This document shows, in pieces, positions 2 to 46,228 of a stretch of DNA of 64,000 nucleotides. Each line of letters begins with the position of its first letter. The first letter of the stretch is position 1. The DNA comes from an uncultured Planctomycetales bacterium (GTDB lineage: Bacteria; Omnitrophota; Gorgyraeia; Zapsychrales; JANLHA01). The notes beneath the pieces were generated by a model. The model was not told the origin of the DNA. It was given only the letters and a program-made list of their open reading frames with translations, and did not search any database. The stretch covers positions 199,743-263,742 of the forward strand of contig CAYJXI010000001.1 of the NCBI GenBank assembly GCA_964374105.1, read 5' to 3'. A program made the translations under genes and the position numbers.

Positions 2-3000
2 ATGGGACTCAAACTGGGCATAGGAATTGGCAGTGATTACGAGGGTGAATCGGTCACCTATCTTGAGGAAGAAAAAACTGTCCTAGAGCCGCATATGTAC
101 TTGATTGAATTCAATAAAAATAGCGGGCAATTGAATGTTAATGAATTCGATAGTATGAAAGATCTCGCTAAATTCATTAATTCACCAGAATTCTTAAAGA
201 GAAGACAAAAGGATAAACGCAATCAAGGTTTTTCATCGGGAACACCGTTTGGCACCAAAGAGGCTTATAACTCATCTTATCAAGGGATCACGATCAACGA
301 TCAAAAGATGAATCTCGATCAAGCCCAGAAGGTCTTTGTCCGTCAATATCGACTGAATCCGGAAACAGTTATTTTGGTGGCTACCCAGAACGGAATTCAA
401 GTCCAGATGAACGCCAATGCCCCACCGGAACTTGCAGAGAAAGTCAATCTCTCCAGTCAGAAGCTTAAAGATATTCTTTCTTCCCTCCCTCTTAAAGTTG
501 ATGAGTCCGTTTTCATCTATCTATTCAAAGGTGCAATCAAAGAAAAACATTTTGGTTCGGATCCTTTTGCCCTGATCGATGTGGCGGAGGAAAAGCTTTA
601 TGCTGAAGCCGGGGCTGCTAATGAAATGAAAATCCCATCCGTGTATCTAACGTTTGAACTTTTTCAAGTCTTGGGAGATGAGTCGTTGGTAGATCTCCTT
701 CAAGAAGAAATCCAGCACGCCTTCGCCAAGGTTGCGGGAATTTTCTATCAAGAGACATTTGAAGAAGATCCTTTAAGACCTCAGAAGTTAGAGAGAGTTC
801 AAAATGAGATCAACAGCTACAAGGAGCAATCCCAACGCAAACCTTTAAGTGACGAAGATATCAATCAATTTAAGTTTGAAAAAAGTCTACTTAAACAAAG
901 GGACATCATAAACGGGGTCATCAAGGACCGCGCCGGTTATGACAATCAAGTGAGCTCTTTTGTGGCGCAGAGATGGATTCATATGCAAGAAAAGAATCTT
1001 AAAAGTGATTCTTATAGTGCCAAGGTCTTATTGAGGATTTATGATTCGTATGAAAAAGGTTTTGATCATTTTCGATTTTTTGATGATCAAACCTTAAGTG
1101 TCCAAATGCTATCCCAGACTTTCCGTTTAGTGCAAACAACGAATTTTACCGATCTTGATTTCAAAGAATCATGGCTTGGCATCGAGAAACCCACCTGGAG
1201 GAGTAAAGGACACGTTTTAGCTGATGTCGGATATCGGTTGATTATCAGCATGGGGTTTCAGTTGTTGGCGATGGGGTGGAAACCAGATCGCCGTTTTCTG
1301 GAAAAGGCCTTGAGCATTGTCGAGGATGTTTTAAGCCAGGAGGAATTCACCGTCGAAAGTCCTAAGATCTTCTTTAGTATCATGAAGGCCCATTTCGCCG
1401 CATGGTTAGGGGATGTGAAGAAATTTAAGGATGCCGAAAGGCAATATCAAGAAATTATCGAGAATCAAGAAAAATCTCAACGACAAGATAGTTCCCTTTG
1501 GGGGAGTATCACCCTGTTTGATTCATTCAAGATTTATGGTCTTGCGATTAAAGCGGTCTTACATTATTTCAGTGACAGGACCCAAGAAGCTTTAAAAAGC
1601 TTCCAAGAGGCTGGGGAATACCTAGTTAAGAAATCCATGAATATTGAAAACTTTTTTAGTGCAGCAAGATTTTACTATCACCGTCAAAGATATAAGGAGG
1701 CTTTGGAGTTTATCAATTTAGCCTTGAACGCTAATCAGAAAACAAGGGCTTTTGTGGATCTCTTTTCGGCAAGGGCGCGAATCCACCTCTTGTTGGGTGA
1801 AGAAGCCAAGGCTCTTTCTGATTACAGTGAAGCCATCAAAATGGGGATGAAGACAGAATACAAACGTCCTAAAGATATCAACAGTATCGTTACGGTCGAA
1901 TACATGATACGAATCCTCATTGAGCGATTGCGGATTTTTATTCGCTATCTTGAGGAGCCGGACAAGAAAGAAAAGGTCGCTTTACTCTTGATCGATCATC
2001 TCAATAGCCTTTTTCCAATGATTAAGGCGGTTCGTGATCAGACAGTTAGGCAATTGGTATTTCGTATTGTCCTTGAGGAGTCCCGGAATCGAGAGGAGGC
2101 CTTTTTACCGATATTAAGAGCTATTTTCTTAAGCGATATTCAAAGTGTTAGGGAATTGTTTGAGAGTGCCTTTAAGAATCCGAGTATTCATTTCCATCGA
2201 GCTCAATTGATGCAAGTCTTCAATGAACTTAAAAAAGAGGGCGGGAAAATTGAAGACCGCGTTTTAGCGTTCATCGATCGAATATCGACAAAAGAGTCCG
2301 CAGAACCCGTCACAGCTTTAAGACCCAAAGGAGAACTAAAACCACAAGAGAAAGAAGAAGTCAAAGAAGAAGTAAAAGCTCTATCAGAAGAAGAGAAATT
2401 GAAGAAAGACCTGGAAAAGAGATTAAGGAAGATTGAAGAACTTATTGTGGAATTTAAAATTCGCTTCGGCGAGCAACTAAGGGATCTGAGTCCCAATGAA
2501 GAAGAGGATTTTGCTCAATCGTCAAGGAGGATCATCAAGGAGGCCCAGTGGCTTAAGATTGAAATAGAAAAGAAAAAGGTTAATTGGGGTGAATTTGAAG
2601 ATCGATTCAGGGGCCTTGAGGTTTCCTTAAGATTTGTAATTGAATTTGAGAACTATGTCAAATCAAAACGAGATCGACTGAAAGGAGAATTAGACCAACT
2701 CCTTAAAGAAGCACAACAACTGACTGAAGAGATGGTTAATCAATTTACCCAAAGACATGAGGAGGCCGCTTTAGAAGAAGACCTGAAACGATGGATTGGT
2801 CAAGTTGCAGAAATGATCGATAAGATCCAAAAAGAAACTCAATGGTCTGACGATTCTAAAGACATTTTGGAGAATCTAAAGAAATTCATGGAATTGTTGG
2901 CGAGATTCAAAGAGATCTTAAAGAAGGTCTTTAAAGACGGTAAAGTCGAGGAAAACCTTTTAGAATTAAGAGCGGTCTTGGGAGAAATACCGCTTAAGAC

Positions 3001-6000
3001 TCCCAAAGAAGTTGTAGCCGGGACAATTGAGGGAGTTCTTGTGGAAAGGTATCTGCGATCGATCCTTGTCATCTTTCCCGAAGAAATTCAAAAGAAAGTC
3101 AACCATCAATACCAATCTCTTCCCGGAGTGGTTCGGGAAGATTTGGTCAATAAATGGGTGACGATCCAAAATGAGGCTGTTCGGCTGACGGTTGAATTCC
3201 TGATCCCGGCTATGTCTCAGGATTTAAGAAGAATCCTGGATATGGCTTATCCAGCTGGAGCTAGCGAATTTATTAAATCTTATCTTGCCAGGAAATTAGC
3301 GCTATTTAATAAGAAGGAAGACTCAGCGGTTGTTACGGCACAATATTTTAAAGATGGGAGTCAAGAGTTTAAGAAGCAAGTTATTCAGATTGTTATTGGC
3401 CTGCTAGAAGAACAATTGGAGAAGGCCAGAGAAAAGACCAGTGCTTCCGCAGAGGCCGTTAAGACCGTTAAGGATATCTATATTCGAAAGATAGAAAGCG
3501 AATTAACGCCGCAGCTTGTTTCTGATATCAAAGGAGGAATCCTGAATCGCCTATTGCGTGAGAGACAGAGTGGTCTTGATCTTGAAAAGCAGAGAGAAAA
3601 GGAAAAACAAAGACAGGAAGAGCAGAAACGTCATCTGGAAGAACAAAAGAAAAAAGAAGAAGCTAAAAGAAAAGCAATGATCCAAGAACAGGTGAAAAGG
3701 GCCAAAGAAGACATCCAAAGAATCATTGAGCAAGGCCAAAGGGTTGTAGCCGATTTTATGGCCGGCCTGTTAAAGAAAAAAGATCAGCAAAAGCTTAAAG
3801 AAGAATCGCAAAAGAAACTCGAAGACCTTTCGACACAACTCATGAATTTGGCGCAGGGTGTGGTGATGGTTCAATTAAGCCAGGAAGTCCTCAATGCCAA
3901 TCAAGCTTTAAATAAGATCAGTGAGACATTAACCGCATTGGCGCAATTCCCCATTAAAAATATTTTAAGCGAAGATGATCTTTTAGGACTTCTTGAAATC
4001 GTTTCTTCTTACCAAGAAGCAACTCACCTAATTGATCAGGAAATTCAAAGACGGGAGGAATTGCAAAGAAAGGTAGAGGAACAAAAACAGCCTAGTGCAT
4101 TAGAAAAAGAACAGGTTGAAGAAGAAATTCCGCAGCTACCTTCTGAGAAGGCTTTAGGGCTTTCTGATCAGCTTGAGGGCCGATGGAAGAGACTGGTGCG
4201 GGAAGTAGAGGATGCCGAAGATCCCTCGATGAAAGGCAATGCTTTAAAACGACTTGAGCGCGAGATCAATCGGGCCAAAGAAAAGGCTAAACCCAAAGGG
4301 AAACGGACCTTTGTCAATACTAAAGAGCGAAAGAAGCCGCGAATTCCCGATGGAGTCGAAGAATTTTATTTAAGAGAAATACAAAAGAAAGGGAAATTCC
4401 CACCCGGCAGACAAGGCTTCCAGGCGCGCATTAAAGAAGAGAGTTCTTGGTTTAGAAGTGCGGCGAACATTTCCAAGGTCGAAGAACTACCCTTTGTTTT
4501 ATCCCAGCAAAAGATGTCAAGGATTTTTGTTACCATCGAGGAGAAAAATAGTCTTTTCAAAATCTCCCAGCGATTCCCCAGGACATTTTTAAGTGACGGT
4601 AAACTCGCTAGTTTATTAAAGGAAGCCCTCTCGGCTTTAGGAGTCATTGACATTAAGTTTGCTCACCGCTTAAAAGAATTCCTCCAAGCCAATCATTCTT
4701 TCAATTTGTTGACCATCAATCATACCTTCCACCTTTTCGAAAATTATGAGGATTATTATCTCATTGTAGTCAATTTTGGTCTGATTGATCTCTACCGAAA
4801 ACGGGCCATCCAGGCAAGTAACTTTGAAATCGCTCTCACTGTGGGTCTCGTCCATGAGCTTGGTCACTGGGCCTCCCCTGAGCTTGAAGAAAAACAAAGG
4901 ATCGACATTGATGTCCAACTAACCCGTCGGCTCATTGAAAGCAAAAGCAACTCCTATCTTACTTTCCGCAAAATAGCGCACCAATATATCAATCATTTGC
5001 TCAATCTTATTGAAGAAGAAGGTTATATCAAAGCCCTTGTTAAGGATTTAGAAGAAAAACCCGCCAGCAATTTGTTTGTTCCTGAAGCTGGTCAGGAAGT
5101 CAAACCACCTGTTACGGAAACGGCTACTAAGGCGGTACCTGCGGCTACTGAGTCCCAGGCTGAATCTGTGATCGTCCCCACTAGAAACGGCTTCATAACC
5201 TCTGAATCTCACATCTCCGATGTCATTCCTGCGAAAGCAGGAATCCAGCTTGAGGACAATTCTATTTTGGATTCCCGATTAAGGCATTCGGGAATGACAA
5301 AGAAAGGTTATGAACCCGGTTCTAAAGAAGCTGAAGCGTTGTTAAAGGAAGATTCTCATAAAGGCGCCGTCATCTTTGAACATAATGATCGTCAGGATGA
5401 TCTCGTTTCCTCAGCCGAACCGGTTTTAAGTCAACCCCCATCAACTGAAGTAACTGAAAAACCAACGATCGAAGAACCCGCTCTCTTTGACCTCATTATC
5501 ATCGTTGAACCCAATGTGGGATCAAAGCTGAATCAAAGGGAAGCAGAGAATCTGAAGATGGAGATTCTTGAAATCTACAAAGAAGAATTAAAAGAATTAA
5601 AGATTACGCATTTGCGAGTTGTCAAAGGAGAAGGCCGTTCTGTCAAACTAAGATCATTAAAGGAATTTGTGGAGATCGAGGTCTCGATAACCCATAAAGA
5701 CATAAAATCCTTAAACAAAATTAAAGAAGCTATCAGAGCATTATTGATGAGCCATCTTAAAGAAGAGTCATCAAGAAAACAATTGTTAGAAACAAAAGAG
5801 GTTTTAAATGAACCCATTGAGGTTACAGATTATGGGAATATCGATTTCGGTGGGACATTGGTTGAGGAAAATGAACATCTTCAAGAAATCATTCGGCGGC
5901 TCTATAAACAATACGGACCGATCTTAGAGAAGTTAAGTATCGAAGAAGTCAATATCATTTATGAAAAGCAACAAACCTTTGAAATCCAAGGGAAGAGATT

Positions 6001-9000
6001 GATCTTACATTTAAGACATGCCGAAATCCTAAAACGGAAGCAGACCCCAATGTCATTTCAGACCGGGAGTGTTATGACCGGGAAAAGAATCATCGGTTTA
6101 GAACAAAGACCCGATGAATTTTCCACCCACAAATTCAAAGAGGAATTGACTGGGGTCTTAGAGATGCTCAAGGTTTATGTGGAAAGACAAGCGTCACCAC
6201 CAGGCATGCCCAATGCCATGGTGCCTTGGGTTTATGATCGTTTGGTTCAGAGAGGATGGTATCACAGGGCTATCGGTATAGCCATTATTTTGGAGGCTAT
6301 TTTGATCTTGAAAGTTGGTCAGGTATTAGGTCTTTCGGTTATTGGATTTGGGATTTTGAATTTTGTCATCCATTTGATGGGGCCGTTGTATCGGTGGATT
6401 GAAAAGGAAGGGAAATGGATCATCGAAAAGACCGATTGGCCGAAGGAAAGACTTGAGGCCTTCCGCTGGGCCATGAATTTTGTGGTGAGTGGCATGGTTA
6501 TCTATACCCAGAATGACAAATCCGCGCACTGGTTATTGGACTTATTTCTGCCTCCTCAATTCGCATTTCTCTTCGGATATCAGATTCTGGGTATTCCTGT
6601 TATATCGATACTCGTAGCGATGAGTTTGCATGCCCTTAGAAATTATTTACCGCGAGTATCCGGCTGGGACGTTCCCTTGTTGATGGCAGGCCTGCCTGAC
6701 CGGCAGGCAGGTTGGGTTAAGCTGGCTGCAAAGAAACGTACGTTTGGTAAAACATCCCATCCGCCTAAGCCTTCTCAATCTCCTCGAAAACCAAATCGGG
6801 CTTGGAAAGTGGCGTTTGACCGCGCCTTTAAAATTAAAAAACTATCTCAAAAGTTAAAGGCCTTGGATCGATTGGCAAAATCTTTACACAGCCCAGGTGT
6901 CCTTAAGACATGGAGGAAAGAATTTCATAAGGTTTATCGCGCGATTGTGGTTGAGGCGTTTCGCCGCAGCCTGTCTTACGAAGGCGCATCGAGAGTTTTA
7001 GGATTTGGGGATAACACAGAAAGGCTGTATCAGTTGATGTACCGCCTTAGGTTGACAGCTCATGAGCGAAAGATGATTGCTCAGTATGTTGCAAAGGCAA
7101 GACAAAAGCAATTTCGTTCCCGCCGAATGGCCATCAAAGAAATTTTCATGAAGAGTCAAACGCGGCAGGAGGCCTTAAGGAAGGTTAAGGCCATGGATCG
7201 GGTTAAACGCAAAGATGAGAATTTCCTGTGGAGTCTTGCAGACAATTATCGGCTTAAACGTGAATACAGGGCCCTGATGGAGCGTCATCGAAAGAATCAA
7301 TCCGAAAGTTTAACCCAAAAGAAGTTAAAGAAATTTAAACCTGTTCTTCAAAAAGCAATTCAAAAGAGCCGGGGCCGACCTGTCCTTATAGCTCAGTATT
7401 TTGGTTATCGATACTTCTCACTTCTCGTCAAATATAACAAAAATACAAGATTGATGGAAACATTGCGTCCGATCATTATTAAAGCGACTTTAAGATTTAT
7501 AGAGAAGGTCAAACAAAGGCCTATTGATGAACAGCACCGAATCTATGTTGAACTTCAAGATGTTACCCATTGGTTTGGCAAGGAGGAAAAAGACCACTTG
7601 GGAGTTATTTTCATTAGGACATTAAATAAGGCACACGCGAGAATTATGCAAAAGGCCTGGGTAAGGGGCAAAGGCGATAAGAAAGAGGCAGCTAAGAATC
7701 TCGGTGTATCAACTAATCGGATGGATGACTGGGCCTTGAGGTTTGATTTACCCTTGGCCAAAGATATCAAGATCATTGAGTCGTACCTGCAATTGATCAG
7801 TGAGCCGTTCCCGCCACCAAATCCGCTCAATCGGTTAGCTGAGCATTATCATGTGACAATCTATCGAATCCGGAGTCGATTACTCAATTTAAGTCAAAAA
7901 GGACAACAAATTGGTTTAGCCCCTCTGCCGCTTCTCCATCCCATAGGATGGTCAATGGATTTGGCAACAAGACTTTTGATTGGGGTGTCCTATGAGCTTT
8001 GGTTGAAAAATAAACATCGATTTGATTCATTAAGACAGAAGGAACAGGGGAAAGGGGAATCCAATACAGAAGAACAACTGAAAGCCGAGGTTATAAAAAT
8101 TAAACAGCAAGCACAGGAATTGGCTTTTTCTATGGCGAAACATTTCCTTCAGAAAGAGCGTTCTCTGATTTTAAGCAAGTTAAAGGAAAAGAAGGGGGAC
8201 CTCAATGAGGCTGCCTTAGATCTTGGGATTTCCTCAAAGAAATTAAAAGAGAAATTTGAAGAACAAAGATTATTAAAGATTTGGCAGTCCCTTTTGTTGA
8301 ATGCCCTTAGAACTCGAATCAAGATCATTGAACAAGATAAAGGTTTAACTCAAAAGGAGCGTTTGGAGGAGTTGAAGAAACTTTACGATCATCCGCAGGG
8401 GGATTTTAATCTCGGGCGTAAAACAGTTCTGTTGGCCATAAGGAGGATTTATCATTCCCTTTTCCTTAAGAAAGACACCTTGGCGCAGACGGCGGACTGG
8501 TTTGCAATAGATTTAGATGAACTGCTTAAGGACATAAGGAAATTTAGAATCAAGGGCGAGGTTGTTAAACAGCAGAGCCGGTCGAAAGCAAAACAGGAAC
8601 AACAGAGAACCCGTTCTCTTTCCAAACAAATCATGGACATTTTGAAATCCCAAGAATTAACTTTGCGTGAACGTTATCAGAAACTGACTCAATTGGATAA
8701 AGAAACCAAGGGTAAGAATAAAGCTGTATCCGATTTGTTTGAATCAGCCACGAAGCGTTTGGTGATTCTTGCGATAAATCAAGAATATACGATTACAGAC
8801 TCAGCCGAAACTTTGGGAGTCACAAGATCAGTGCTAAAAGCAAGGATTAATAAATATGGTCTGGTTTTATTGGTGGATAATCAAAAGAGACGTTTGGAGA
8901 TGAAAAACTTAAGAGAGGCGAAACAAACAAAGGAGAGAAAGAAAAAAGAACAACAACGAAGACAGTTAGAAATGGAAAGGCAGAGGAAGAACAAGGAAAA

Positions 9001-12000
9001 ATTAAAGAAAGAGGAAGACGAACACCAGGCGGTCAATATCCGTATGGCCGAAGGGGTCGTTGAGAAGGTCATCGGAGATTATGACTACCTTTTGCCTTCC
9101 TATCCGATTCTTAAAGGTTTAGATGAGGTTTGGAAACGCCTTGAGCAGATTGAGCAGCAGTACGGGCGTATGTGGGATGAAAGCCTCAAGAACATAACGT
9201 GGAGGGGTGTCGAAGGAAGATTAAGAAATCTAGGAATTGATTCTCGAAAAATGAGGCTGGTGAAAGAAGTGTTCGATCGAGCAGATTTTAAGGAGGCGCG
9301 AAAGAGAGTCCGGGATTTACAGAAAGAAATGAGTCAAGTGCTAGAGAGGAAAATCCTGCAAAAACTAAAGACCGATCCCCGTTTAAGAGAACTCATAATC
9401 CTAGGAAAATGGCAGAGTGTGAAAGACGAGGTTGTCAGTATATTAAAGGAGATGGCCAAAAGCAGGAGCCAACTCAAGGCCACTTATGAGGTGGGTTATC
9501 CACTCCCCCGATTCCTCTTAGATGATGATGAGGAGGTGCATGATTTTAGACCTCTGGATGCCCTCATGGCGGGATTATTGGTGGCTATCTGGGTAGGGAT
9601 TGGGATTGTGGTTTCCACTCTCATTTTAGGAGCGGGGACATTAACAAATGCGATTATGATCTTGGGGATGGTTTATTTAGGCATCGCATTTGTCAAGTTC
9701 AATTTAATTTATGAGGTCGCTTTCCGGGCGATTGCCTTATGGAAGATGTCAGAGAAGCTAGGGATTCTCGATGAAATGAGACAGGGATTTTCTGAAAATA
9801 GAGAGAAGGAAATATTATCTAAACTGGCACCTCAGGAGATTCAAGAAATTAAAACAATCTCCATCGCCCGATCCGATGGGACCTTAACACCCGCCTTTGT
9901 TGCGTTAAGAGAGGATTGGTCTATTCCATCTTTATGGGGTAGAAATCATATTTATCGATATGTCAAAAATCAAATCCTCTGGCATGAAGAATTCAAATCG
10001 CATTGGGTGGGGCTCTTTATGATGGCCCCTGGGTTTAAGTGGATTTTAAACATAGGTCGATTCTTATTTGCCCTTCGAGCGATTATTCCTCAATTGGTTA
10101 TTGGGACGTTAACAATTCTGATCGGCCGGCAGATATTAAGCCTTTTGGGGATCAATGTTTCCTCTTTGTGGTCTTATTTTCTTATTGGTGCCATGATGAT
10201 CTTTAACCTTTGGCTGTATCATGATCTGACTTTCGTCTCCCGCAAATTAAAGGAACTCAAGAGAGGGAGTCAGATGGAACAAATTCTGGCCCTTGAGGCG
10301 CTTGAAAAGAAAGAACGTAAGTGGAGTAAACGGCTCATTAACACCCTTGGCGAGATTATTATCGATCAAGAGAGTCCGTATGAGGCTCGAGTAAAAGCCT
10401 TTGAGGTATTTAATCGCATGCTGATTCGAAATCCGCATTTCTTAACCAGACAGATGTTTGCCGACATTGTCGCAAGTTTTGGATTTTTTGATCTGCACAA
10501 TATGTTTACTCGCTTGTCACACTCCGTACCCTTTCATCTTTTTAAATTAGGGGAGATCCTGCAGGACTTGATTAATTACATTTATCAATTGGTTGAGCCC
10601 TTTAGTCGAAAATTCCAGCAACAGGTGTTACAGGTCTTTCAAGATTATTATCTTAGGGTGATGGTGCATTTACCAGAAGATATCCAGTATAAGGAAGTCA
10701 GCTTTATCAAAAGATTGATGGGAGAAGATTTGAAAGAGAAACGCAATCAAGGAGAAATTCTCTATCCATTAGAGACAATTAAAGCGGCCATTGCTATGAA
10801 GATTCAATTGCATAGGTTGCAAGATTTAGAGAATGTTACCCCTCTTGGCTTGGGGACAATGGAAAGGATCATCCAGTTTCTCGGCCAGGGTTATCCTCAA
10901 CAAACGCGGCAGTTCCTCGAGATGTTTGGTATCGATGAGTTTCTAAGGATTATCAGGGAAATTCACCAGACAGAAACCCATCGCCGCAAATCAGGGGAGA
11001 AGGTCGTGCCGTTGTCAGGCCAAGAATATTATGAAGAGATTCAAAAGAAGATCGAAGAGCGTTTAAGACAAAAGGAAGAGGGAGCTGCAACTGCCGGATC
11101 CATTTCTCATCTGCCAAAACGAGATGATCTGGATTATGCTTTCCCGCGTTGGCAATCTTATCAGTTATCATTGAGTGTCTTATTAATTTTATTGATGGGG
11201 TCGGCCTGGTTCCAAGAAATCCCTCTTTTACGTCCTTGGGGTGATTTGGGCTGGATGTTTCTCTTAAAAGTTTTACTTCCTGCATGGGTGAGTTATTATC
11301 TTACCCTACCATTCATCAATTTTATTCATGAATTGGGTCACAAGATTATTTTGAAGAAATTCGGAGTCAAAAGCAAAATTTGGCATGACAGCGAACGACA
11401 AATTTTGCGAACCCATCCTGACCCAGCCCAATTTGGGAAATTGTCTCCCAAGAAAAAAATTATTGTTTATCTTGGCGGTTTATTGGCCGAGTTTATTTTA
11501 TATTCATTGTTTGCGGTAGGGTTTGGTTTGAATCCATGGAATATGATGAACGGGTTATTATTATTCGCGCCGTTTAAAATTTGGTTAATAATGACGACTC
11601 TGATTGTAAGTATCGGTGTCTTATCGCAATTCCCGCCTTTCAGCCGATGGAATTCATTAAAGACGGATATAGAGAGGGTGTTAGAGGAGATTCGAAAGCT
11701 AAGCGGGGGCCCCACTTCGAAGGAGAAAGATCAGGAATCTAGAGACTCTTTCCTCAATAGTCCTTCTTTAAATAATCTTAACAATGGATTCTCTTTGAGC
11801 AATGACAAGGAAGACCAAGGAGACGGTGATCATGGGAAAAATAGAAAGCATACTCGTTATCTTAACCGAGGCTCAAGCGTTTCGAAATCGGAATTGATTA
11901 ATGCCTTGATGAAAAGAAACGGTAATCAAGACCGGGCAGCTAAGGACTTAAGTGTTACGGGGGGGACACTCTCTTGGCTCATCAAGACAAAATATAAGCT

Positions 12001-15000
12001 TAAGCCCAAGGTTTTAGCTATCAAGAAAAGAGTCAGAGAGCTCCTTGGTGCCTTCCAGATAACTCAAGGGAATGAAGATAAGGCCCGTGCTGTTTTGGGA
12101 ATGACAAAGGTTGATTATCAAAGGGAGATCCGTGAATACGGGTTAGAAGATCAATTGGCCAAAGAGAAAGAGATTGTTTCTTATCTCATCCAAAAACTCG
12201 AGGCGGCCTCGGGGCAAATGACAACTGTGGCCAGGGAGTCAGAAGAGTTCTCGGAACATAATGTAAGAACACTTATCAGGCGATATCAATTAAAGGAAAT
12301 CATCAACAACGCCAAAAAGCGGACCGGTGAATTGACTCAAGGTTTATTGGAGCACAACCTCGATATCGATCAGGCAGCTTTAGCATTAAAGATATCCAAA
12401 GAGGATTTAGAGAAAGAGATGGCCCGTTTTGGGACCACAGTCGAAGCACTTTATCAAAAATATCAAGCTGAGCGTCAAGAAAAAGAAAAGCGAATTTTGG
12501 AGGCAGTAGAGAACCATGGCCTCGATTGGAAGAAGGTGGTCGAGGCTTCAGGTTTCAGCGAAAACTACATTTTTGATGCTATTCATCGTTATCACCTTGA
12601 ACTCAAAGTGGTAAAAATTTTGGTGGACCACTTGCAAAGATTGCAAAAGACTTTATCCGAAGTCAAAAGTTTCAAAGAACTAAAAGGAATGTATGACCAA
12701 ACGGATCGGTTTACAATGAGATTCTTAAAGAAGCCGATCATTTTAGAAATGGCTTTAGAAAAATATCGCGGGGAAATTCTTTTAGAGGGAATCCGACGCA
12801 AGCAAGGCAACGAAACTCATGCCGCTAAGGCCCTAGGATTTTCTTTGCCTGGATTCAGGCGGAATATTCGAGTTTATGGTTTGAAGGATAAAATAAAGGA
12901 GATGAGAGAATTTGTCAAAAAGTTAATCCATACCTTCAAGACTCTTCAAGGGGACAAACAAAAGGTTGCTAAGGCGCTAAAGATGAAGGTGGATAGATTT
13001 GAGGAAGAAGTTGATCGATATGGATTAAGCGATTCCTTTGAAGAGATTCAACTAAGGGTCGATGAACTGAAAAGCCTACTTAAGAAATCCGCAGGCAACC
13101 TTTACCAATTGGCCAAGGATTATCGTATACCATATGTCACTCTGCAGGAAGAAGTCAGTGGTCATGGATTAAAGGAGAAACTGCGCGCCATTCAGGATGA
13201 GACGAAACGCTTACGTCAGTCATTTGAAGCTGTGAGCGGCAACAAAATGAAGGCCGCTAATAAGCTGAAGATCACGGTTGAGGAATTTGACCATCGGATT
13301 GAGGAGTATGGATTGGCGGAGGTTATCCGTAAGACAAAAGAGAAGATCGATAATTTAAGGGATCTGATTGAGGAAACCGGAGGTAATCTTTCTAAAATCG
13401 TTCGGATGAAGATCAAAGGGATGTCTGAACCAATGGTATTTAGAGATGTTCAGCGTTACGGTTTGATGGGATTGGTTCAGCAATTGCGTCGGAAGGATAA
13501 GCCGAAGGTATCTGAAACTCCGTCTGTGACTGCCACGTTGTTTACTCAACGCAGGGCGTGGCTGAAAAACTTGCCGGCACGATTGATCTTCAGTGTCGCC
13601 ATTATAATTCAAGAATTGGTGCATTTGATTGCGGCGTCTCTTCGTGGATTACCCATTAAATACTTTGGGATTGGGCATCTGTTAAGTGCAGTCGAAATCG
13701 ATTACGCTCGCGCGCCACCGGTGGATGAAATGATCGTACGGTTGGTCGGCCCATTAGCCAATCTTTGGGCGGGTCTTGTGGGCCTTATCTTGATTGTTGC
13801 CTTTGACCTTTCTTTGATCCCACAGGGATTTCATTTGAGTTTGGCGACATTGCTCCAATTTTTCACTTTGATCAATTTCGGATTATTCATAAGTGATAGT
13901 GGCCTATCCCTTCTTTTTAAACGAGGGGATGTTTGGGAGGCTTGGGAGGCTTGGAATGAAACCCATTTGCAAAGGTATTTTGCTCAAAATCAAAATTGGC
14001 AAAGCGCCATCTATGAATTATCTGTCTTAAAAATGAATGGGATAATTGCGGGATTCGCTATTACCGGAAGCTTCTCCCGTGGACAGTTTCATTCAAAGAA
14101 AGGACATGACTTTGATCTCACCATCTTTCCCAAGACAGGATTGATGGGGGAAATGTACTTGGCTATCGAGAAGCTGGATAAAAAATACCGGGATCAACCC
14201 TTGCGTGTTCATATCACCCTTGAAGCCTATGGCCCAACTTACCAATTCTATGAAGAGGACCATCGGATAAAACTTGTTTATTACATGGTCCGAGGGGATC
14301 GAGTCCTTGAAAAGATGATCGAAAAAGATCAATACAAGAGCGATCGCCTCATTGATATCACTCATGAGAATTTAAGTATTTTCACCCCTGCCTTTTTGGC
14401 CAGATTGCATCGAGAATTAAGTTCACTGAAACGTCTCAGTTTGGATGAGCTTCAACATCTTATTCGTGAGCCACCGGTCATTAAGGTTCCTAAAGCCTAC
14501 GTTCCTCACTCTCAAAATCAACCCGGGGACGACACTCCGCAGACGCAAGAGGATTCAGAGGAGCATCCCATTAGATCAGAGAACATGTTTGCTCAAGGAG
14601 CGAAGGAAGAGGATCCATTCATCGCTGATCGATTCAATCTCTTAGGCAGGGCTTTGAAAACCCTCGAGGATAAATTAAGGGAGGATATCACCAAATCCGG
14701 CCAGATCATTGACCTTCCGGAATCGGCCTATTGGGTTGTCTACCGAACCAAAGAAGGACAAATTATTTGGAATCTGAGCAAAGAAAAGATTCGGGAGATC
14801 TTGCTCAATAATAGTTTTGAACCTGAAGAGATCGAGTTTGTCATCGATCAAATCGAACTGCATGAACAACAGCCTAACGAAGGGCTCGGCCTAAAGAAAC
14901 AACAGGAGAGCTTGATTGAGATCAGGAATTTAGAATTAGAAAAATTAAGACATGAAAAAGAAGTCCGAGGGGAAATGGCCCGTCTTGTCAAAGAAAGTTT

Positions 15001-18000
15001 TGATCTTGATAATCAGTTTCCTGAGTTTGAAGACCTGGCAACGCTTTTAAAGAAATTCAGAGACTTCAATGAAAAGAAATGGACATTAACAATTGGCAAG
15101 AGAGGAACAACCGCGATTACACCAGTTGTCGGGTTTGGGGTTATCCAATTTTATTCCTTAAGGCCCGGAGTAGAATACAGAATCTTTATGTCCTGGCTCC
15201 CTTTTAGCGGTATTCGGATTTATTTTGGGCATCCGTCACACGTGGTGGCCTTTGAGGTCAATGCTTATCGAGAGCATGTCGATAAGAAAATAAAGAAAAT
15301 GACCCACATTGGCGATCGGGTTGATTTATTTAAGACAGAAGTTCCTGAAGAAGAATCCTTGGAATTGTTTATCTTAAAAGATTTAATTGGTGATTTGGTT
15401 AAGACAGAAGAAGAGTTTGGCTTACTTCTGGAATTGAGAAATGAAGAGACCGCTCAAAGGATGTTAAACGATCTCATTGCGGAGAATATCGTCGAGGAAC
15501 TGGATCTGGAACAAAAAGCAAAACCGTATGTTATTGAAGATATTCCTCCGGGAGTCCAATTGAGCCTTGAGAGGTATTTAGCGCGCTTAAGGCAGGAAGA
15601 AAGGGCTTATCAGGAATCAATTCAACGAAAAGAAAAGGAAGTCATCACTCCCCCCATCCCCCAGGAGGACGTTTACGAGCTTCTTCAGAAAGCAGAGGAC
15701 AAAATCATTTTGGAAGAGCCAGAAAAGGTTCGGCTCGAAATCGAAGAAATCCCCGCCGAAAAGATGGAGGAGTATAAAACACAAATAGAACAAGAGGTTA
15801 AGGAGAAAGATGAAAAGGAGAAAGAAGTTGTTCTGGAATACCCATCGTTGAGTGATCAAGAGATCTTAGAGTTTGTTCAGAAGATCATTGAAGATGATAT
15901 CACTCTTCAAGGAACAAGGCTCCATCATCCACAATGGCTTAAGTATTATCTTTTCGAAGGGATGTCCTCAAGGAAGATCAGCACGTTAGTGAAAACTTCA
16001 GACTCCAACGTTCGTCGCAGGATCAGAGAAGATAAAAAGCGTCTTATGACAATCATGCGGATCAAGTATGGAATATCACAAGAACGGATGAGGGAAATTT
16101 TTAAAGAAAAGGCGGATAGGTCACACTGGCCCAAGGAATATGACTTCTTAGAAAAAATTATTGGAGAGGAAATCCCTCGGGAAGCAACAAGGCTAGCGCA
16201 TCCAGAATGGCTTAAATTCTATCTTTTTGAGGGGAAGTCCTTCAAGGAGATTGCCCGGATTGCCAATACCTCAAAATCGAATGTGATTCAACGGGTAAAA
16301 AATGATGAGGAGCGTATTACCACGATCATGAGAATCCAATATGGAATATCGGAAGATCGGATGAGGGAGATCCTTAAAGAAAAGGCACAGAGGGCTCGCT
16401 GGTCTGTGGAATATGATTTCTTAGATCAAGTCAATGCCTGGTTGAAACAGCCCAACCAATTCCCATTACCTTATAAATTCAATTTGAAGGATACTGATCG
16501 CAATAGTGTCTTGGTATTCAATTTTCTAGGCATTCCTTACCGAGATTTAAAATTCGGCAAGATCAGTCCCAGGAATGATTTTGAATTTGGATATGTTTTA
16601 GAAGTTTTTAGTGAGGCAAACAAAGCAACAGAAGCATACCTCATTGCTGATCAACGTGGTCGAAGACCCCAAGTCTTCTCTGATGATGATTTGATGTTTC
16701 AAGGCAAGGGGGCAGATACCCAATTGCTCAAATGGGCCCTGGCGAAAAGTTTGGCTATCAATATCACTTGGGCCGCAAAACCACGAAAGATCCATAAAGA
16801 TTATTCAGGAAAGGATACAACTGGATCCATTGATCTTTTTGAGATTAAAGATGGCAAACTGAAACCCACCCGCGCGCGGCTGCCTCCCACATACACCTCC
16901 CAAAGGCCTCTTATCCCTTATATCAGTGCAGAAGAATTCACGACCTTTTTAGAAAAAGGCTATTCTGTGATCTTGCTTAAGGAACAAGGGACAACGAAGG
17001 TGGTCATGAGGGTCATCATAGGACGATTAAATAATCAATGGGTCGTTGAAACCGATTGGGAGGGTGATTATACGGACTGGAAGGAGAGCAGTATTCGTGA
17101 AAGAATTTTTAGTGACTTGCAGAAATTTTTTGAAGGACAAAGGCTAACGGTCCCGAATCTGAAGGATCTTGTTGTTAATTTCACAGAAAGAAAAGGAAGA
17201 AAAGTGGCAACCGCTTACTTGGGCGGCTTGATCTATCTAGGGACTCGCTATCCGCACATTTCCGTTCAAATCGGAATTTTGCGATCTGCGCCAGGGGAAT
17301 GGCTTTTGGGTTTATGGGAACCCAATCGGGATAAGAGATTATCCCAACCTTTTAGGATTTTAAAGAAAAAGGGTGATGTTTGGATCAATGTGAAAAATGT
17401 TAAGGTTCGATACTTGAACCAAAGGGATCTTCTGCCAAGGGCCAGCCTTCAGACACCGATCGAATTTTTAGAAAGATTTAAAGAGACTGCCCAAGGATCG
17501 CATTTCATGAAAAATGATTTCATTGAAGAGGTCAAGAGACAGCTTATGATTAACCGAACTTATATTTTGGAAATCCTGTCTAAGGTTCTCAAGCTGATCC
17601 CTAAAGAGCATGGGGCCGTTGAATTCCTGGCTCAGATTGTCCGCGAGGTCAATGATCCCATTTTGACCAATCATATTCAACTTTATTCCTTGCCTTACTT
17701 TGGGACAGCCCTGATGCGTCAGAGAAGTTACGATTGGGGAGAGGAGATTAACAAAATTTTGTATCCCCAGGGACGGAAAGGTGAACATCAGGGTAATCAA
17801 AAGGATAAGAAAAGGAAAAGTAGAAATAGAAATAAGGATAAACTCAACGACAGCAAAGATGATGAACAAAGAAATGGCGGCCCTCACCTGACTGACGGTC
17901 GGGGCGGCCCCCGCCAAGGCGGGGCAGGCCGCTGGCCGTGGATGGTGCCGGTGTATGAGGGAATTGGTAAATTGTGGCCACGTGGCCACAATTGGTCCTG

Positions 18001-21000
18001 GAGTGGAGAATTCATCAACTGGGTTGTTGCGTCAAGCTTGATTGAATCCGGGCTTTTTGTCGGTGGTGGGATGATTGCGATTTTGAAATGGGCCTTCGGG
18101 TTGCCACTTATTTTAGGGCCTCCGCAAGCATTGGTCATTGTCGTTTCCTTCTTTATTCTGCAGTTGATGTGGCATCTCCTTCACGGCCCAGAGGCTTTCA
18201 CCAAAGATAAAATTGCTATTTCAAGATTAGCGGTTATCATCCTTGCCTTAACATTAAGTCTTATCAGATTTTTTGATTTAACGGGTATTGTGTTCTTAAC
18301 AAGTATTGTGCTGGCCATCATATTGCCACATGCGGTTATTAATGCTTTCAGGGAAGGACAACAATTGAGCAAATTCAGTGCGGGAGGCGGATCCCAAGCG
18401 GGAAGAATTCATAAGGCATTACGAAGGTTTCCAAACACGAATTTCATTGGTACGAATAAAATCCCGGTCGTTGGTGGCGATATTTTGAATCTTATGTTTG
18501 GACATGAGGGCCAGGTTCAAAGAGTCATTGGCCATGAGTCCGTATTTTTTACTCATCAACTGGGCAGAATACAAGACGTTGCCGGTCAAATTCCAAACTT
18601 TAATATTCATTTTGGGGATGAGCGAAACAGCTTCAGCGGTTTTAGTAAGCTGTTGGATACATTTGGGATGATTTCTAAGATAAGTGACGGCTTTGCGGGG
18701 AGTGAGGTCAAATGCTTCAATTGCTTCAGCGATCATCAGCCGATGCCAAACCTCGGCAAGAACGATCACCGAGGTAAAACCAGGAATTTCTTTATTCTCA
18801 ACGCGGATAAGAAAGTCAGTGCAGGAATCGATAATCCCGAGAAAATGGTAAATGAAGATATTGGAATCAATGAAAATCGATTGACCCTCAGGAACCTTCG
18901 AGAGCATTTAACCTCCCAGGGGGGTGAAATGGGGAGATTCGGCAATGATTTTACCGAATTTATTGCGGACATGAATGATCGCCTTGGTAAGCCGGGCTTT
19001 GCTCTTTTCATTTTCAATAATGAGCTCTACCTTTTGGTAGTTGCGCAAAGGCAATTTCTTGAGGGGGCGGATAATGCCTTTTTCGTAGATGCCAGCAATT
19101 TTGATCATAATTCATCTCCTTATGCAGTTTCGAGTATAGCTTCTTCGAAGAAGAAAGTCAACCCCCAAAATCGGCGAAAACAAGAAAAGGTGAATCTCCT
19201 CTTTAAGCCCGAATGGACGATTTTCTCTGACGATTCACGAACCCCGAATCACGATTCCAAAGAAGAAGGCGGCCCCCGCCAAGGCGGGGCAGGCCGCTGG
19301 CCGTGGATGAAGAAATTTTATAATTTCTTTGGTCAAAGATGGATGGGCCAGGCCTTGATGCCTTCCTTGGTTGAATCCGGCGGTTTTGTGGCGGGGATTG
19401 ATTGGCTATTATCTCTTGTCTTTGGTTTACCTTACGATTTGAGTCCACCGCATCTAGGCCGTATTGGGATTCTGCAGTTGGTCTGGCATCTGTTGCATAT
19501 CCCACGAGGAAAACCAAAAGAGTCTGTCAGTCCCGCCAAGGTCAGCATAACGGTTGTCAGTTTATTGTTGTTAGGATTCCTGCCTAGTTTTATGAACTTG
19601 TCTTATATCTTCTTAACTATTTCTTTCATTCTGAATTTCGTACATTTTATTGTTAATCTGTTTAACCCATGGGAGGAAAGTCCACAAGGATCATCCCTAG
19701 GCGAAATCAATCCTTTTGGTTTGAAATTAAAGATGGTCCTGGGTGTAAGCCTTTTAGGGATGGTGTTCATGGGATCTCTGTACGTGATGGGGGGATTGGA
19801 TTGGTATCTTACCTTAAAGAATACGCTCATTGAAGGAAATCTTGTGACTTGGAAAGTAGCGTTCATAGATATGGTGACTGGCGCATTTCTCTGGGGTTTT
19901 GGAAATGTGATTGGGCAATATTTGGTCAAACACCCGGCCCGTATAGATTGGCGCCATAATCGATTGGTAACGGCCTTTGGTTTGGCCGGCGGGTTGGGGA
20001 CGCATGTCCTTTACAATTTATTAATGGGACTGGCCATTACCGGTGGAATCAAAAGGATGTTATTTATCCTTATGGGGGGACTCGTGTTGACGCTGTTATT
20101 TACCGTTTCCGAATCCCTGGCCCGACGGTTATTTAACATCAAAAAGTTTTCGGTTAAGGATGAGCAGGCCAAAACGCTTGATGTCCTGGCCATCAAATTC
20201 CTCATCGCCTGGCCGAAGTCCTTCATTGTCGCTAATCTCTTACCTTTACCGCTGCAGGTCATCAGTGAACAGATTTGGGATTATTTCTTGAAACCGGTCG
20301 AGTCCTATCTGATGAACCGGGACAAACCATTATTTGTTGAACCAATATTGCATCGAGTTGTTTGGCCGATGTACCTAAGGGTCAGTTCGGTAATAAACGG
20401 TTTGCAAAAATTATTCCTGGATGACCGAGGTGTCCAAGTGAGAAATTTTGTTCAGGAGTTGTATAGATTACAGCCTCCGCTGCCCATTTTAGATGAAACA
20501 GGTGTTGATCACCAGCGTTACCCTGGGGATCATGAATATTTTTCGAATTTTAAACAGCTGTCCACATTACCGCGGCATAGCACCCTTGGACAACCCGCTG
20601 TCTTTAGTCCATCCGAGACCACATTTTTCCTGATGGCGCATCTTCCTGTCCAAAAAGGGGACTCTGTTTTGGATGTCGGTACCGGCACCGGGGCGTTGGC
20701 CTTTCATGTCCTAAGGCAGGGGGCTAAAGAAGTGTTGGCCATTGATATTGATGAACACGCCGTAGCCACGGCCAGAGATAATGTCAAAGATGCCGGCTAT
20801 GCCAGGCGCATCAAAGTTCGGCAAAGCGATGTGTATGCCAATATTCAAAGAGAAGAAAAATTCGATCTTATCGTATCAGCGCCGCCGTTATTTGCCGAGG
20901 GACGACGTTCTGATCCAGCCATCTATGATGAAGGGTACCGGATGATAAGCAATTTAATCCAAGGTGCCGGGGAACATCTGCGGATAAATGGACGGGTGGT

Positions 21001-24000
21001 CTTTCTCCATTTAATCGGCTCTTATGGCGGCCTGATGACTACGGCCGAAGCGGCAGGGTTTGATTTAATAACCTTGGCGGTTTCCTCTAATATGCCGTTT
21101 GCCATTTACCAATTAACCAGAAAGAAAGATGACTTAAGTTCACTGATGAAGGAGGAAGGCCGTGAGCCTCAGAAACTAAAAGAGATTATCCGGATAAAGC
21201 TTGAAAATTTGCCTCTCCCATCCGCTAAATTTATTCTTGAAAATTTAATCCTGAAATCCACGTATCAAGACCCAGAGATCAAGAACTATCTTTCGGCTCA
21301 GGCGCGAATGGCGCTTTTGGCCAAGGCCTTGGCGGTTTCCCTGAAAAGAAAGGATGCAAATGAGATGGCCGTTTACCTTGAATCTCTCCTTAAGGAATCT
21401 CGCCATTTGATCCTACCTTCTGCACTAATGTTTATCCGTTCTTATTTAACCGTGTATTATCTTAAACAACCGCTAAAGCTTGCCTTTGTGATTCCTGTTT
21501 ACGGCGGACAGAAGGCCTTCTTGGATTTTAAGGATGGCGGAGAGGGCTGGTTGAGGTTCAAGGTTGATCAGTTCTTTGTAGAATTGTTATCGGTCAATCC
21601 AAAGGTCAAGGGAAATTTCATCTTTGTCAATGACGGAGATGATTCAGCCAAGACCGGAAGAAAAACTAGTGATGTGATCCGCGACCTCCTTAAAGATCCT
21701 TTTTATGACAAGGTGCGTGGACAGATCTTTGTTCTCGATCTGCCGCAGGAGACCAAGGTTAAGATGAAAGGAAAGAAACATAGTGCGGTTGCGGCGGGAA
21801 TGAAGTTTGCCTTGGAAAGAGGAGTGGATATTGTCATGTACACCGACCCGGATCTGGCCAGTCATTTGGGATTGAGTGGACTCTTGGTTGATTCTTTGAT
21901 CAACCGCGGATTTGACATGGCGTTTGGTTCGATTGAAATGAAAGGTTCAATTGTTCCTATTCGTTCATTCAAACGCCGTGTTGGGACTCTTGCTTATAGT
22001 CTTTGGGTGAGGATTAATCTTATAAGATACATTCTTAAAGTGAAAGATACCCAAAGGTCTTTCAAGGCCTTTAAACGAGAGATATTAGAGAAGATTATGC
22101 CTATTAGGAAAATGAGTGCTGATCAAAATGGGATCATCCAGCTTAAGGATTATGATCCCGATTTCCATTATGATTACACCGGTGACACCGAATGGATGGG
22201 GCGCGTGAAGATTGTGGGAGGAGGTTTAGAAGAATTCCCGATCGTTTGGATTGATTCACCGCAAACCGCCCAAACAAGTCTAAAGAAAGATGCCTGGCCG
22301 ATGTTTAAGGCCCTAACAGGGCAGAGAAGATCTTTAAGGAATTTTGCCTTAAAGCATTCTGGATTACGATCAACAAATCACGACCCGCAAAACAAGGGCC
22401 GTAACGACAAGGCGTGGGTCTTAGAGGATTTCCGGGATGCTCCCAAGCTCGAGGTTCGGGATGAGAGAAGTCTAGGCTTCGATCCTTGGCGAGATTTGAT
22501 TAAGGAAGTGGATACTTCTTTATTGAAAGAAGCGATTGGTTTGATTCAGCACACTGATGAATTCCCAGGGCAAAAGAGTTTGGTGAATATCCTTAAAGAA
22601 CTCATGAACTTTAGGCGGATCTTTTTTGCTAAGAACCTGCCTGGGATGTTTAGGGCCGAGCGACTCAATGAGGGAGCATATTTGATTTTGATCGATCAAT
22701 CATTGCATTGGTTATTTGGCGGAGCGGACTCTCTGATTCGTATCCGCAGTCCTTCCCCCCGTCAGAGAAAAGCCCTCTTAGCTTTCCTTGCGGCCAAACT
22801 TCTGCATGAGGCCGCGGAAATCCTTATGTCGAATCATCCTAAAGTGCATTGGCATTTGGATGAAAAAGATCCCTCCCTCACTACAACCGAACAGGTTGCC
22901 TACTGGGTTGAGGTGATTTTCTTAAGCCGTATCCCCGCCTTCTGGTTTGATTTTAAGAAATTCCTTAATCCCACAACCGTCTCTCCCTTATTTGTTCTTT
23001 ATGAATCTGTTTTTAGTGGGGAAGAATCTTTAGGCCGTTCCCCGGATCAATCTCCCAAGCCGTTAAGGCAGTTCCTGGCTACTTTAGGTTATCTGGCACC
23101 TTTACAGACTAAACTCTCCCGGGAACTTTTCAAACATATCCTTCAGCAGTTCGATGTTAATCTAGCGGAATTTGAAAGGCAAGAGAATCTTCGGGATTTG
23201 ATTGAATCCACCGTTGGTATTGCCGCGGCGCATTTTGATGACAGTCCCATCGGACGGTTAGCAACTGGAGTAATGATCAGCCGGGATTTTCTTATGACCA
23301 GTCTTCATGTTGTTGAGGATGAACAGGTACGGTTGCAGTCCTTTTTCAAGATTTATATGTTTGTCCCGAGGTCAAATGGCAACAGCCTTTTAAGTAAGAA
23401 ACCCAAGATGTCTGAAGCGAAAGTCGTGGCTATGCATCTCAACCAGGATTTGATGTTATTGAAGATCGATCCAGCCTCGATCCCGTCAGGGATTGTCTTA
23501 AGAGAAGTTAAGCTGGGGTATCAGGAGAGCTTGAAGGGAGGAATGCCGTTAATCATTTCCACCCTTCGTTCAGATGAAAAAGCGATTGATGAGAAGGCAC
23601 CGAGAATTCAGATCACCTCCACTTTGATTCCTCCTGTCGAAGAGGACCTCATTTATATGAAATTTGCTTCATGGAAAGGAGTGAGTGGCTCGCCCGTTGC
23701 TGAACGAGGTGGGCGCTTGGTGGGGATTTATATCGCGACTGAAAAATTAGGCATGAAAGATAAGGGTGTCGCGCATTCCATTGGGGCTGTGCGCAGCATG
23801 ATCGAGACATTGAAGATTCCACTGTCGCAGAGTCACGGCCGTTCAGCAGATCATAAAAGTGACAGTCACTCCCGCCATGGCGGGATGACTGTCACCTTTA
23901 GAGAAAAAATTAAGAAATGGTTAGTGAAGGCAATCGAATTTCAGGATAATATAATTCGAACATCACGAATTCCTATCTTTAAGTTTTTAAGGCTGCTATC

Positions 24001-45727: not shown

Positions 45728-46228
45728 GCCCATGACCCGCACTTTGACCAAATCCGCAAAAATGCCTTTAATGGTGATGATCCCCAAAGATCACAAACCC
45801 AATCTCCCAACGACCCCCACCGCGCGAAGGAGGGCGACCGTGTTGAGACAGACCATCCTTTAAGACCAATCAGCCAGCTGGGCGCCGTTTTGTGGCGATT
45901 TTATCAGCCTCGGGTGGCATGGGGATTTTTAAGAATTGCCTTTTCAACGACCGTGGCGAATTACCGGCACCTGCGCCATCACGGTATTCGCGGGGCGCCA
46001 CTGGGACGAATCCAAGCCGCACTCCGCGCGCCCTTCTTCAAAACCGCCGAACGTATTGACGGCCTGCCGCGGTGGAATATCGACCGCCATCTCCTCCCCG
46101 AAGATATCCAGCGCCTCGTTGACATCCACGAATCGCAACCCTGCTGCCGCTTGGGTAACCGCGAGATGGCGATAACCATTCAGAAAAGGGAAAGCAGACA
46201 ACGATCTAAAGAAAATTCAGCAGATGTC
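45728..46228 (+). other. Junction between the two giant ORFs. The single in-frame TAG (45725-45727) is followed by 54 stop-free in-frame codons that include a DPHRAKEGDR motif copy (45812-45841), then a ~400-bp GC-rich (~60%) block, before AT-rich ORF2 proper (an in-frame ATG is at 46229).
   Basis: Frame arithmetic: positions 2, 45725, 45812 and 45890 are all 2 mod 3. The GC-rich block shows ORFs on both strands in the provided track. Confidence 0.6.

Follow-up and report, generated by a model that had tools for sequence, protein, structure and literature searches.

Helix-turn-helix (HTH) units of the Fis/NtrC type are among the best known single-copy DNA-binding domains. The known members of this family (HTH_8, PF02954), such as Fis, NtrC, NtrC4, and ZraR, are soluble dimeric regulators that carry a single copy at the C-terminus. 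Giant membrane proteins are known from Omnitrophota (bioRxiv 10.1101/2023.11.21.568195; PMC10066038; bioRxiv 10.64898/2026.06.07.730766), and one architectural class recognised among the long proteins of this phylum is that of tandem-repeat scaffolds (bioRxiv 10.64898/2026.06.07.730766). In the present study, we analysed a 64,000-nt stretch of contig CAYJXI010000001.1 (GenBank assembly GCA_964374105.1, positions 199,743–263,742, forward strand; hereafter the window), which GTDB assigns to Omnitrophota and which contains a giant open reading frame (ORF) with a tandem array of HTH_8 units. The giant ORF, in which hydropathy analysis distinguished at least 10 hydrophobic clusters, resembles in its sequence features the giant membrane proteins known from this phylum. 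We propose, giving it about an even chance of being correct, that the array is a helical repeat derived from a Fis/NtrC-type HTH that has kept the fold but lost the DNA-reading surface, and that it serves as a rigid spacer or docking scaffold within a membrane-anchored loop.

The first-pass annotation of the window, which was made from the letters and the translated ORFs, reported about nine Fis-like units in tandem at nt 11880–13470. The array proved to be real, with 10 clear units and one degenerate unit (Table 1). A 530-aa array segment scored 34.6 bits against Pfam HTH_8, above the gathering cut-off of 22 (E 1.6e-8), and the NCBIfam model of Fis aligned to array unit g7 over positions 63–97 of 98. 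The units share the consensus L-x8-G-N-x4-A-K-x-L-x10-I-x-R-Y-G-L and are 20–38% identical to the reference unit g7, and stretches of units matched one another in self-BLAST with E-values of 1e-6 to 1e-8. Tandem Repeats Finder detected no DNA-level tandem repeat in the array, which together with the low identity among units indicates that the duplication is old and that the fold has been maintained. A hidden Markov model (HMM) of the unit, built solely from the units of stand-alone relatives with the giant protein left out, gave 117.6 bits (E 2e-38) on the giant protein, with 10 domain matches at an independent E-value (i-E) below 0.01, and gave no match in any of 20 residue shuffles of the giant protein. 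The conserved columns of the array (G-N, A-A, L-G-I, L, I, and Y-G-L) are the core and turn residues of HTH_8, corresponding in Fis numbering to the fold residues G72, N73, A77/A78, L81, G82, I83, L88, L92, and Y95-G96-L97. No AAA+ or receiver domain was found by Pfam beside the array. A single unit searched against the PDB weakly matched the SAP domain of Ku70 (E 0.0019); we did not adopt this reading, given that HTH_8 is indicated by Pfam, NCBIfam, and the fold search alike.

For structure prediction, the input to AlphaFold (AF2) comprised 39 overlapping four-unit segments from the giant protein and its relatives (five proteins). The resulting model of units g7–g10 (aa 4260–4451) had a predicted local distance difference test score (pLDDT) of 93.4 and a predicted template modelling score (pTM) of 0.79; a single-sequence AF2 prediction of units g7–g11 (pLDDT 52.7) was discarded. 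Each unit in the model has helices of ~20, 7–8, and 10–11 residues in the arrangement of Fis helices B, C, and D. In Foldseek searches of the PDB, one unit superposed on the DNA-binding domain of NtrC4 (2m8g) with a root-mean-square deviation of 0.8 Å over 40 columns, at 35% identity and a probability of 0.97, and many Fis chains matched over 74 columns with TM-scores of 0.55–0.59 relative to Fis. Among the viral models of BFVD, the best local match was a phage Fis-type HTH (1.9 Å). No global counterpart of the array model was found in the PDB (best E 1.3) or BFVD (best E 0.08). By sequence and predicted fold, the array unit is thus a Fis/NtrC-type HTH. The high pTM fits units packed into one rod-like body rather than loose beads. 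The first-pass annotation held that its HTH assignment would fall if HMM searches gave no significant HTH matches and the repeats were predicted as a generic coiled coil or helical spacer; because neither the HMM searches nor the predicted fold gave this outcome, the HTH identification stands. All parts of that observation were located at, or within ~50 nt of, the positions it listed.

The array shares with Fis, NtrC, NtrC4, and ZraR the same three-helix unit, the same core and turn residues, and a Pfam score above the cut-off, but differs from them in that eleven units lie head to tail in a membrane protein and in that the DNA contacts of Fis are missing. We take these contacts to be the base-contacting Arg85 together with Arg89 and Lys90. 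In an alignment to Fis, the Arg85 equivalents of the ten clear units are G, K, E, K, E, L, V, Y, V, and E, so that arginine occurs in none of the ten and lysine in two. The equivalents of Arg89/Lys90 are SW, QR, RT, EK, FD, RR, EE, QE, DH, and FR and thus often acidic, and at least four units have an acidic recognition helix. Across four orthologous stand-alone arrays, orthologue identity within the unit was lowest in the columns of Arg85 (0.10) and Arg89 (0.16), compared to 0.68–0.94 in the core columns. Least-conserved contact columns, combined with acidic to neutral relatives, are the opposite of what would be expected of a sequence-reading surface. Because the DNA-reading residues are not kept, a helical scaffold is more likely than a gene regulator. 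Of the two possibilities raised in the first-pass annotation, a repurposed scaffold and a multivalent DNA binder, these contact columns favour the former.

The relatives from which these comparisons come are few. A HMMER search over 1.84 billion representative proteins gave six matches, five of which (P0121–P0125) constitute one Omnitrophota family, with E-values against the array of 1.4e-26, 5.6e-24, 9.8e-23, 3.8e-15, and 9.6e-8. P0122 corresponds to NCBI MCM8765310.1, automatically annotated merely as ‘helix-turn-helix domain-containing protein [Candidatus Omnitrophota bacterium]’, and is surrounded by housekeeping genes, which were uninformative. The proteins are 552–833 aa long, apart from P0125, a 231-aa fragment. 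The full-length relatives consist of a short basic stretch, a hydrophobic segment of 12–21 residues that resembles a signal or anchor, and then nothing but 16 HTH_8 units, which score 128–147 bits on Pfam HTH_8. Their units are of two alternating types, one acidic and one more basic, with 44/48-aa spacing, and the family has a conserved RRI[RK] motif. They are direct sequence relatives of the giant protein's array, from the same phylum and likewise built of tandem head-to-tail units. However, the array in the giant protein is internal, has 11 units at a uniform 48-aa spacing without clear alternation of two types, and is basic, whereas the relatives are acidic to neutral (pI 5.2–8.0). An alternation of two unit types in the giant protein was considered and dropped because scoring with separate HMMs did not bear it out. 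The sixth match, P0126 (ENA, 597 aa), is an unrelated protein with ~12 repeats of a different HTH type (YTVNGFTGNLTQIAKHFxINYxTLxxRI) and matches Pfam DUF2089-HTH, HTH_psq, and HTH_8; multi-HTH arrays therefore occur elsewhere too.

Other searches added nothing to this family. A word-indexed protein search with the array gave no match in a collection that does not hold the giant protein itself, a scan of representative genomes with aa 3700–4700 gave none, and neither did two scans of Joint Genome Institute metagenomes. When the array was aligned with its relatives, none of the shared stretches was conserved well enough to serve as a scan query. The scan of representative genomes with the family alignment recovered just the already known contig of an Omnitrophota metagenome-assembled genome. 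Our literature search on tandem HTH_8 arrays and on HTH domains in Omnitrophota found nothing relevant. Judging from these sequence searches, tandem HTH_8 arrays seem very rare and, to date, confined to Omnitrophota. The unit family is well known, but the tandem array of 11–16 copies and its placement between site-2-protease-like modules in a giant membrane protein appear to be undescribed.

As the first-pass annotation proposed, the array lies between two clusters of transmembrane (TM) helices, one of four and one of three helices (Table 1), and both resemble site-2 proteases (S2P) of the Peptidase_M50 family. Taken alone, the upstream module scored 21.6 bits (E 1.5e-4) and the downstream module 25.1 bits (E 1.3e-5) against Pfam Peptidase_M50, both over positions 4–106 of 221 and below the gathering cut-off of 27.2; with both modules in one query, the score was 36.2 bits. 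The N-terminus of the NCBIfam RseP model matched the upstream module over positions 10–35. In this module, an intact HELGH sits at a helix end, and the 44-aa loop after it contains ten K/R residues. In the downstream module, QELVH replaces HExxH, so that the first zinc ligand is lost. As for the third zinc ligand (NxxPxxxLDG), no LDG is recognisable in the upstream module, and INFGLFISDSG in the downstream module may be a degenerate form. The C-terminal half of the M50 profile, which includes the LDG motif, was unmatched in both modules, and neither module gave a usable match against PDB sequences. The modules are thus like RseP, SpoIVFB, and MjS2P in the N-terminal M50 half and, for the upstream module, in a HELGH within a TM helix and a basic loop after it. 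They are unlike these proteases in that each is below the threshold alone, the downstream module lacks the first His, the C-terminal half is unmatched, no PDZ or CBS domain is present, and both form part of a single giant chain. Two more HELGH motifs lie beside hydrophobic stretches at nt 4853 (aa 1618) and nt 29540 (aa 9847), neither of which Pfam calls M50.

An 81-aa linker rich in S/N/G/D connects the upstream module to the array, and 21 residues separate the array from the downstream module. With TM modules on both flanks, the array thus forms a loop anchored to the membrane at each end. The canonical M50 orientations of the two modules conflict unless one of them is inverted. A cytoplasmic array is favoured by the positive-inside rule at both flanks and by the canonical S2P orientation of the upstream module. 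An external array is favoured by the canonical orientation of the downstream module, by the helix parity to the S-adenosylmethionine (SAM)-dependent methyltransferase domain further downstream (3 + 4 + 6, counted by hand), and by the signal-like N-termini of the stand-alone relatives. Topology predictions for Omnitrophota giant proteins also disagree with one another (bioRxiv 10.1101/2023.11.21.568195).

We propose the following scenario for the array. Eleven 48-aa units, each reproducing the three C-terminal helices of Fis (long, short, and ‘recognition’), may stack head to tail into a rod, which would form a loop fastened to the membrane by a site-2-protease-like TM module at each end. The rod may keep adjacent regions of the giant chain, or molecules that dock onto it, at a set distance from the membrane. 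The basic copy of the array in the giant protein could also hold polyanions, either nucleic acid or anionic lipid, by charge and without sequence specificity. Several points weigh against this scenario. To our knowledge, every characterised HTH_8 domain binds DNA. The basic array, a nearby segment of net charge +92 with a canonical-looking unit, and a second, unrelated basic HTH type together look like selection for nucleic-acid binding. The predicted packing between units may be over-confident because the alignment of overlapping segments from five proteins is narrow. Finally, the scaffold role, the membrane side, and the partner are all inferred.

The second, unrelated HTH type is a pair of units downstream of the array that resemble region 4.2 of sigma-70 factors. 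The two units are ~91–100 aa long, lie at a 91-aa offset, and are 54.6% identical to each other (self-BLAST, E 1e-32). An excised 177-aa segment scored 29.0 bits against Sigma70_r4_2 (cut-off 25.7), with two stretches reported, and 25.0 bits against Sigma70_r4 (cut-off 24.1). Within a 4,001-aa query, the same pair scored only 20.2 bits against Sigma70_r4_2, below the cut-off. NCBIfam sigma70-ECF matched unit B of the pair over positions 125–156 of 165. The duplicated unit is thus like region 4.2 of extracytoplasmic function (ECF) sigma factors (…FEGKSFKEIA…SKSNV..RV…), and its recognition helices, SNVRRRIREDKKR and SNVIQRVKNDEER, are basic. Unlike ECF sigma factors, the pair lacks region 2, is present in two tandem copies, and is part of a giant membrane protein. 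Because no Sigma70_r2 match was found by Pfam anywhere in the ORF at E <= 0.01, the pair cannot act as a sigma factor; it is a separate, more recent duplication without other sigma regions. Neither a word-indexed protein search nor PDB sequences gave a homologue or usable match. The pair sits in a TM-free stretch from nt 13918 to ~18011. For this region, the first-pass annotation suggested a duplicated unit of the sigma-70 region-4 or LuxR type at nt 15890–16420; the duplication and the sigma-70 region-4/ECF-like assignment were borne out, as was the Fis-type assignment of the array, but a LuxR/GerE identity was not (GerE 12.8 bits, cut-off 23.5).

The alternative that best survives, although we consider it doubtful, is that the array, the +92 segment, and the sigma-like pair form a membrane-anchored surface that holds DNA or RNA through multivalent binding of low specificity. 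In a cytoplasmic version, this surface would tether the nucleoid or transcripts; in an external version, it would capture external or prey DNA in the manner of ComEA. Electrostatic binding of nucleic acid is possible because the array is basic (net charge +25, pI 9.6), with units that span −3 to +10 (g1 +10, g7 +8, g11 +6). This net charge would fit anionic lipid beside the membrane equally well. The TM-free segment at aa 2206–3181 is more basic still (+92, pI 10.2), and HMM searches placed three isolated HTH_8-like units in it at nt 7667, 8168, and 8792, where the first-pass annotation reported scattered units at ~7660, ~8190, and ~8800. The Pfam HTH_8 score of this upstream segment was 25.9 bits, with the nt 8792 unit as the best stretch; besides HTH_8, the sole Pfam match at E < 0.01 was a sub-threshold RWP-RK on the same stretch. 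The nt 8792 unit has Arg at the equivalent of Fis Arg85, as the sole unit to do so, and Lys at the Arg89 position.

Nucleic-acid binding is also favoured by the basic sigma-like recognition helices, by the occurrence of two unrelated HTH families within ~1,500 aa, and by a nucleotidyltransferase-like motif and an MTS methyltransferase domain nearby, though the nucleotidyltransferase match is far below the threshold (13.3 bits, cut-off 21). The cytoplasmic version would agree with the K/R-rich flanks of the array, and the external one with the signal-like N-termini of the relatives. However, none of the ten array units has the base-contacting Arg, and at least four of them have acidic recognition helices; the stand-alone relatives are acidic to neutral proteins in which the recognition-helix surface is less conserved than any other part of the unit.

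In its most specific form, the external version would place HTH_8 arrays outside the cytoplasm, in the envelope of a host-dependent or predatory nanobacterium, where they would capture or hold extracellular or prey DNA. ComEA is a membrane-anchored DNA receptor in competence, and the arrays would be a ComEA-like receptor derived from a regulator fold. External DNA binding would agree with the relatives' signal-like N-termini and with the second M50-like module in its canonical orientation, but we consider this form improbable.

A further alternative, to which we give very little credence, assigns an active role to the flanking modules. The S2P-like modules would cut the chain in the membrane and free HTH fragments, either the array or the sigma-like pair, to act on DNA or RNA polymerase, much like the S2P-mediated release of membrane-tethered transcription factors and anti-sigma factors, but with protease and substrate in one chain. 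Substrates of S2P are typically membrane-tethered transcription regulators. Consistent with this alternative, both flanking modules match the same part of Peptidase_M50 and jointly exceed its cut-off, the upstream module has an intact HELGH and the match to the RseP N-terminus, and a Trypsin_2 domain and a neighbouring gene for an Rce1-like protease are present. For other peptidase domains, an earlier study suggested that they cut giant proteins into smaller polypeptides (bioRxiv 10.1101/2023.11.21.568195). On the other hand, each module alone stays below the threshold and matches the N-terminal half of the profile only, the downstream module lacks the first zinc ligand and the upstream module a clear LDG, sigma region 2 is missing, and the array has not kept its DNA-reading residues; cleavage would be a proposal from sequence.

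The weakest alternative, that there is no real HTH but a generic charged helical or coiled-coil spacer with chance matches arising from composition and repetition, could appeal to the low single-unit scores (just the summed score passes the Pfam cut-off), to matches of the profile to designed helical repeats (8vd6, dTor designs) and of UBA-like families in the relatives, and to the below-cut-off sigma match in a long chunk, but it is effectively excluded by the 10 matches in the real sequence against 0 in 20 shuffles with an HMM untrained on the giant protein, by conserved columns that coincide exactly with the core and turn residues of HTH_8, by the AF2 model and its superposition on NtrC4, and by the HTH_8 scores of the relatives.

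The giant ORF shares with the Archaeovorin-type and tandem-repeat-scaffold giants a very great length, many TM helices, methyltransferase and peptidase domains, and old internal duplications without DNA-level repeats. Archaeovorin-type proteins are further characterised by SecA_DEAD, glycosyl transferase/hydrolase, and NUDIX domains and by a gene of >90 kb (West-Roberts et al., 2023, bioRxiv 10.1101/2023.11.21.568195). A search of the 45.7 kb that fall within the window, from which the ORF runs off on the left, gave no SecA_DEAD, glycosyl transferase/hydrolase, NUDIX, or C39 domain. The repeat families listed for Omnitrophota giants are TSP3, NHL, WD, HEAT, TPR, lectin, and dockerin, and HTH_8, sigma region 4, and M50 are unmentioned in the main texts of the same two studies (bioRxiv 10.1101/2023.11.21.568195; bioRxiv 10.64898/2026.06.07.730766). 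If the array is a scaffold, it would clearly exemplify how a fold for reading DNA can become a structural repeat and would add a domain family to giants that are largely unannotated. If it binds nucleic acid, it would provide a direct link of giant proteins to DNA or RNA, which current models of the giants as surface polysaccharide degraders or membrane-anchored enzyme assemblies do not include. The pairing of the array with site-2-protease-like modules furthermore raises the testable idea of self-processing of giant proteins.

Table 1. Positions of the features discussed in the text (nt, positions in the window; aa, residues of the giant ORF; positions of the stand-alone family are those of its own loci)
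Feature	Position	Strand	Remarks	Basis
Giant ORF	nt 2–45727	+	>=15,241 aa, no stop, open at the left end of the window	ORF list, translation
Tandem HTH_8 (Fis/NtrC-type) array	nt 11888–13507 (aa 3963–4502)	+	10 clear and 1 degenerate unit, ~48 aa each	
Degenerate sixth array unit	nt 12632–12775 (aa 4211–4258)	+	48-aa spacing kept on both sides, motif not kept	no HMM match
Four-TM module, site-2-protease (M50)-like, upstream of array	nt 11156–11644	+	intact HELGH at nt 11327–11341 (aa 3776)	Pfam, hydropathy
Three-TM module, M50-like, downstream of array	nt 13571–13918	+	QELVH in place of HExxH (nt 13610, aa 4537); GPLAN and ISDSG motifs	
Sigma-70 region-4.2-like unit A	nt 15836–16135	+	HTH core WLKYYLFEGMSSRKISTLVKTSDSNVRRRIREDKKRL at nt 15935–16045	
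Sigma-70 region-4.2-like unit B	nt 16136–16408	+	HTH core WLKFYLFEGKSFKEIARIANTSKSNVIQRVKNDEERI at nt 16208–16318	
TM-free, very basic segment	nt 6617–9544 (aa 2206–3181)	+	976 aa, net +92, K+R 21.9%, pI 10.2; holds the three isolated units	
Isolated weak HTH_8-like unit	nt 7667–7750	+	GDKKEAAKNLGVSTNRMDDWALRFDL; marginal	independent HMM i-E 0.0092; own HMM i-E 0.12
Isolated HTH_8-like unit	nt 8168–8272	+	ILSKLKEKKGDLNEAALDLGISSKKLKEKF...	independent HMM i-E 1e-4
Isolated HTH_8 unit	nt 8792–8863	+	SAETLGVTRSVLKARINKYGL	Pfam HTH_8 25.9 bits (gathering cut-off 22); HMM i-E 3.5e-4
Stand-alone family locus L002 (P0122)	1023–3350			
Stand-alone family locus L003	287–2614		P0122	

Several further features were noted in and around the giant ORF. 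A nucleotidyltransferase-like motif (GSFSRG-x8-DFDL; Pfam NTP_transf_2) lies at nt 14051–14119, just past the second M50-like module. An MTS-type SAM methyltransferase domain (70.1 bits) at nt ~20590–21010 has an intact motif I (VLDVGTGTG) and SAPPLF at the usual NPPY/DPPF site. It shares one TM-free segment with a Trypsin_2 peptidase domain (31.3 bits) at nt ~23260–23730, although one would usually expect these two domains to face opposite sides of the membrane. Cysteine is absent from the tabulated TM-free segments of nt 2–18000, the first ~6,000 residues of the ORF; later segments have a few. Directly downstream of the giant gene, a 2,302-aa ORF at nt 45890–52798 encodes an Rce1-like CPBP intramembrane protease domain (35.9 bits). 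The window also encodes MutS and MutL, and the relatives of this MutS, at <=73% identity, are many of them named Candidatus Omnitrophota. The same region is also present in a second, fragmentary assembly, GCA_947085705.1, on a 22.6-kb contig.

Other internal duplications were found in the giant ORF. A block of ~150 aa occurs four times at nt ~36164–42640, with starts at aa 12055, 12755, 13304, and 14062 and 46–53% identity. A TM module is duplicated at aa 6012–6129 and aa 6455–6567, and a further internal pair lies at aa 8223–8316 and aa 9724–9821.

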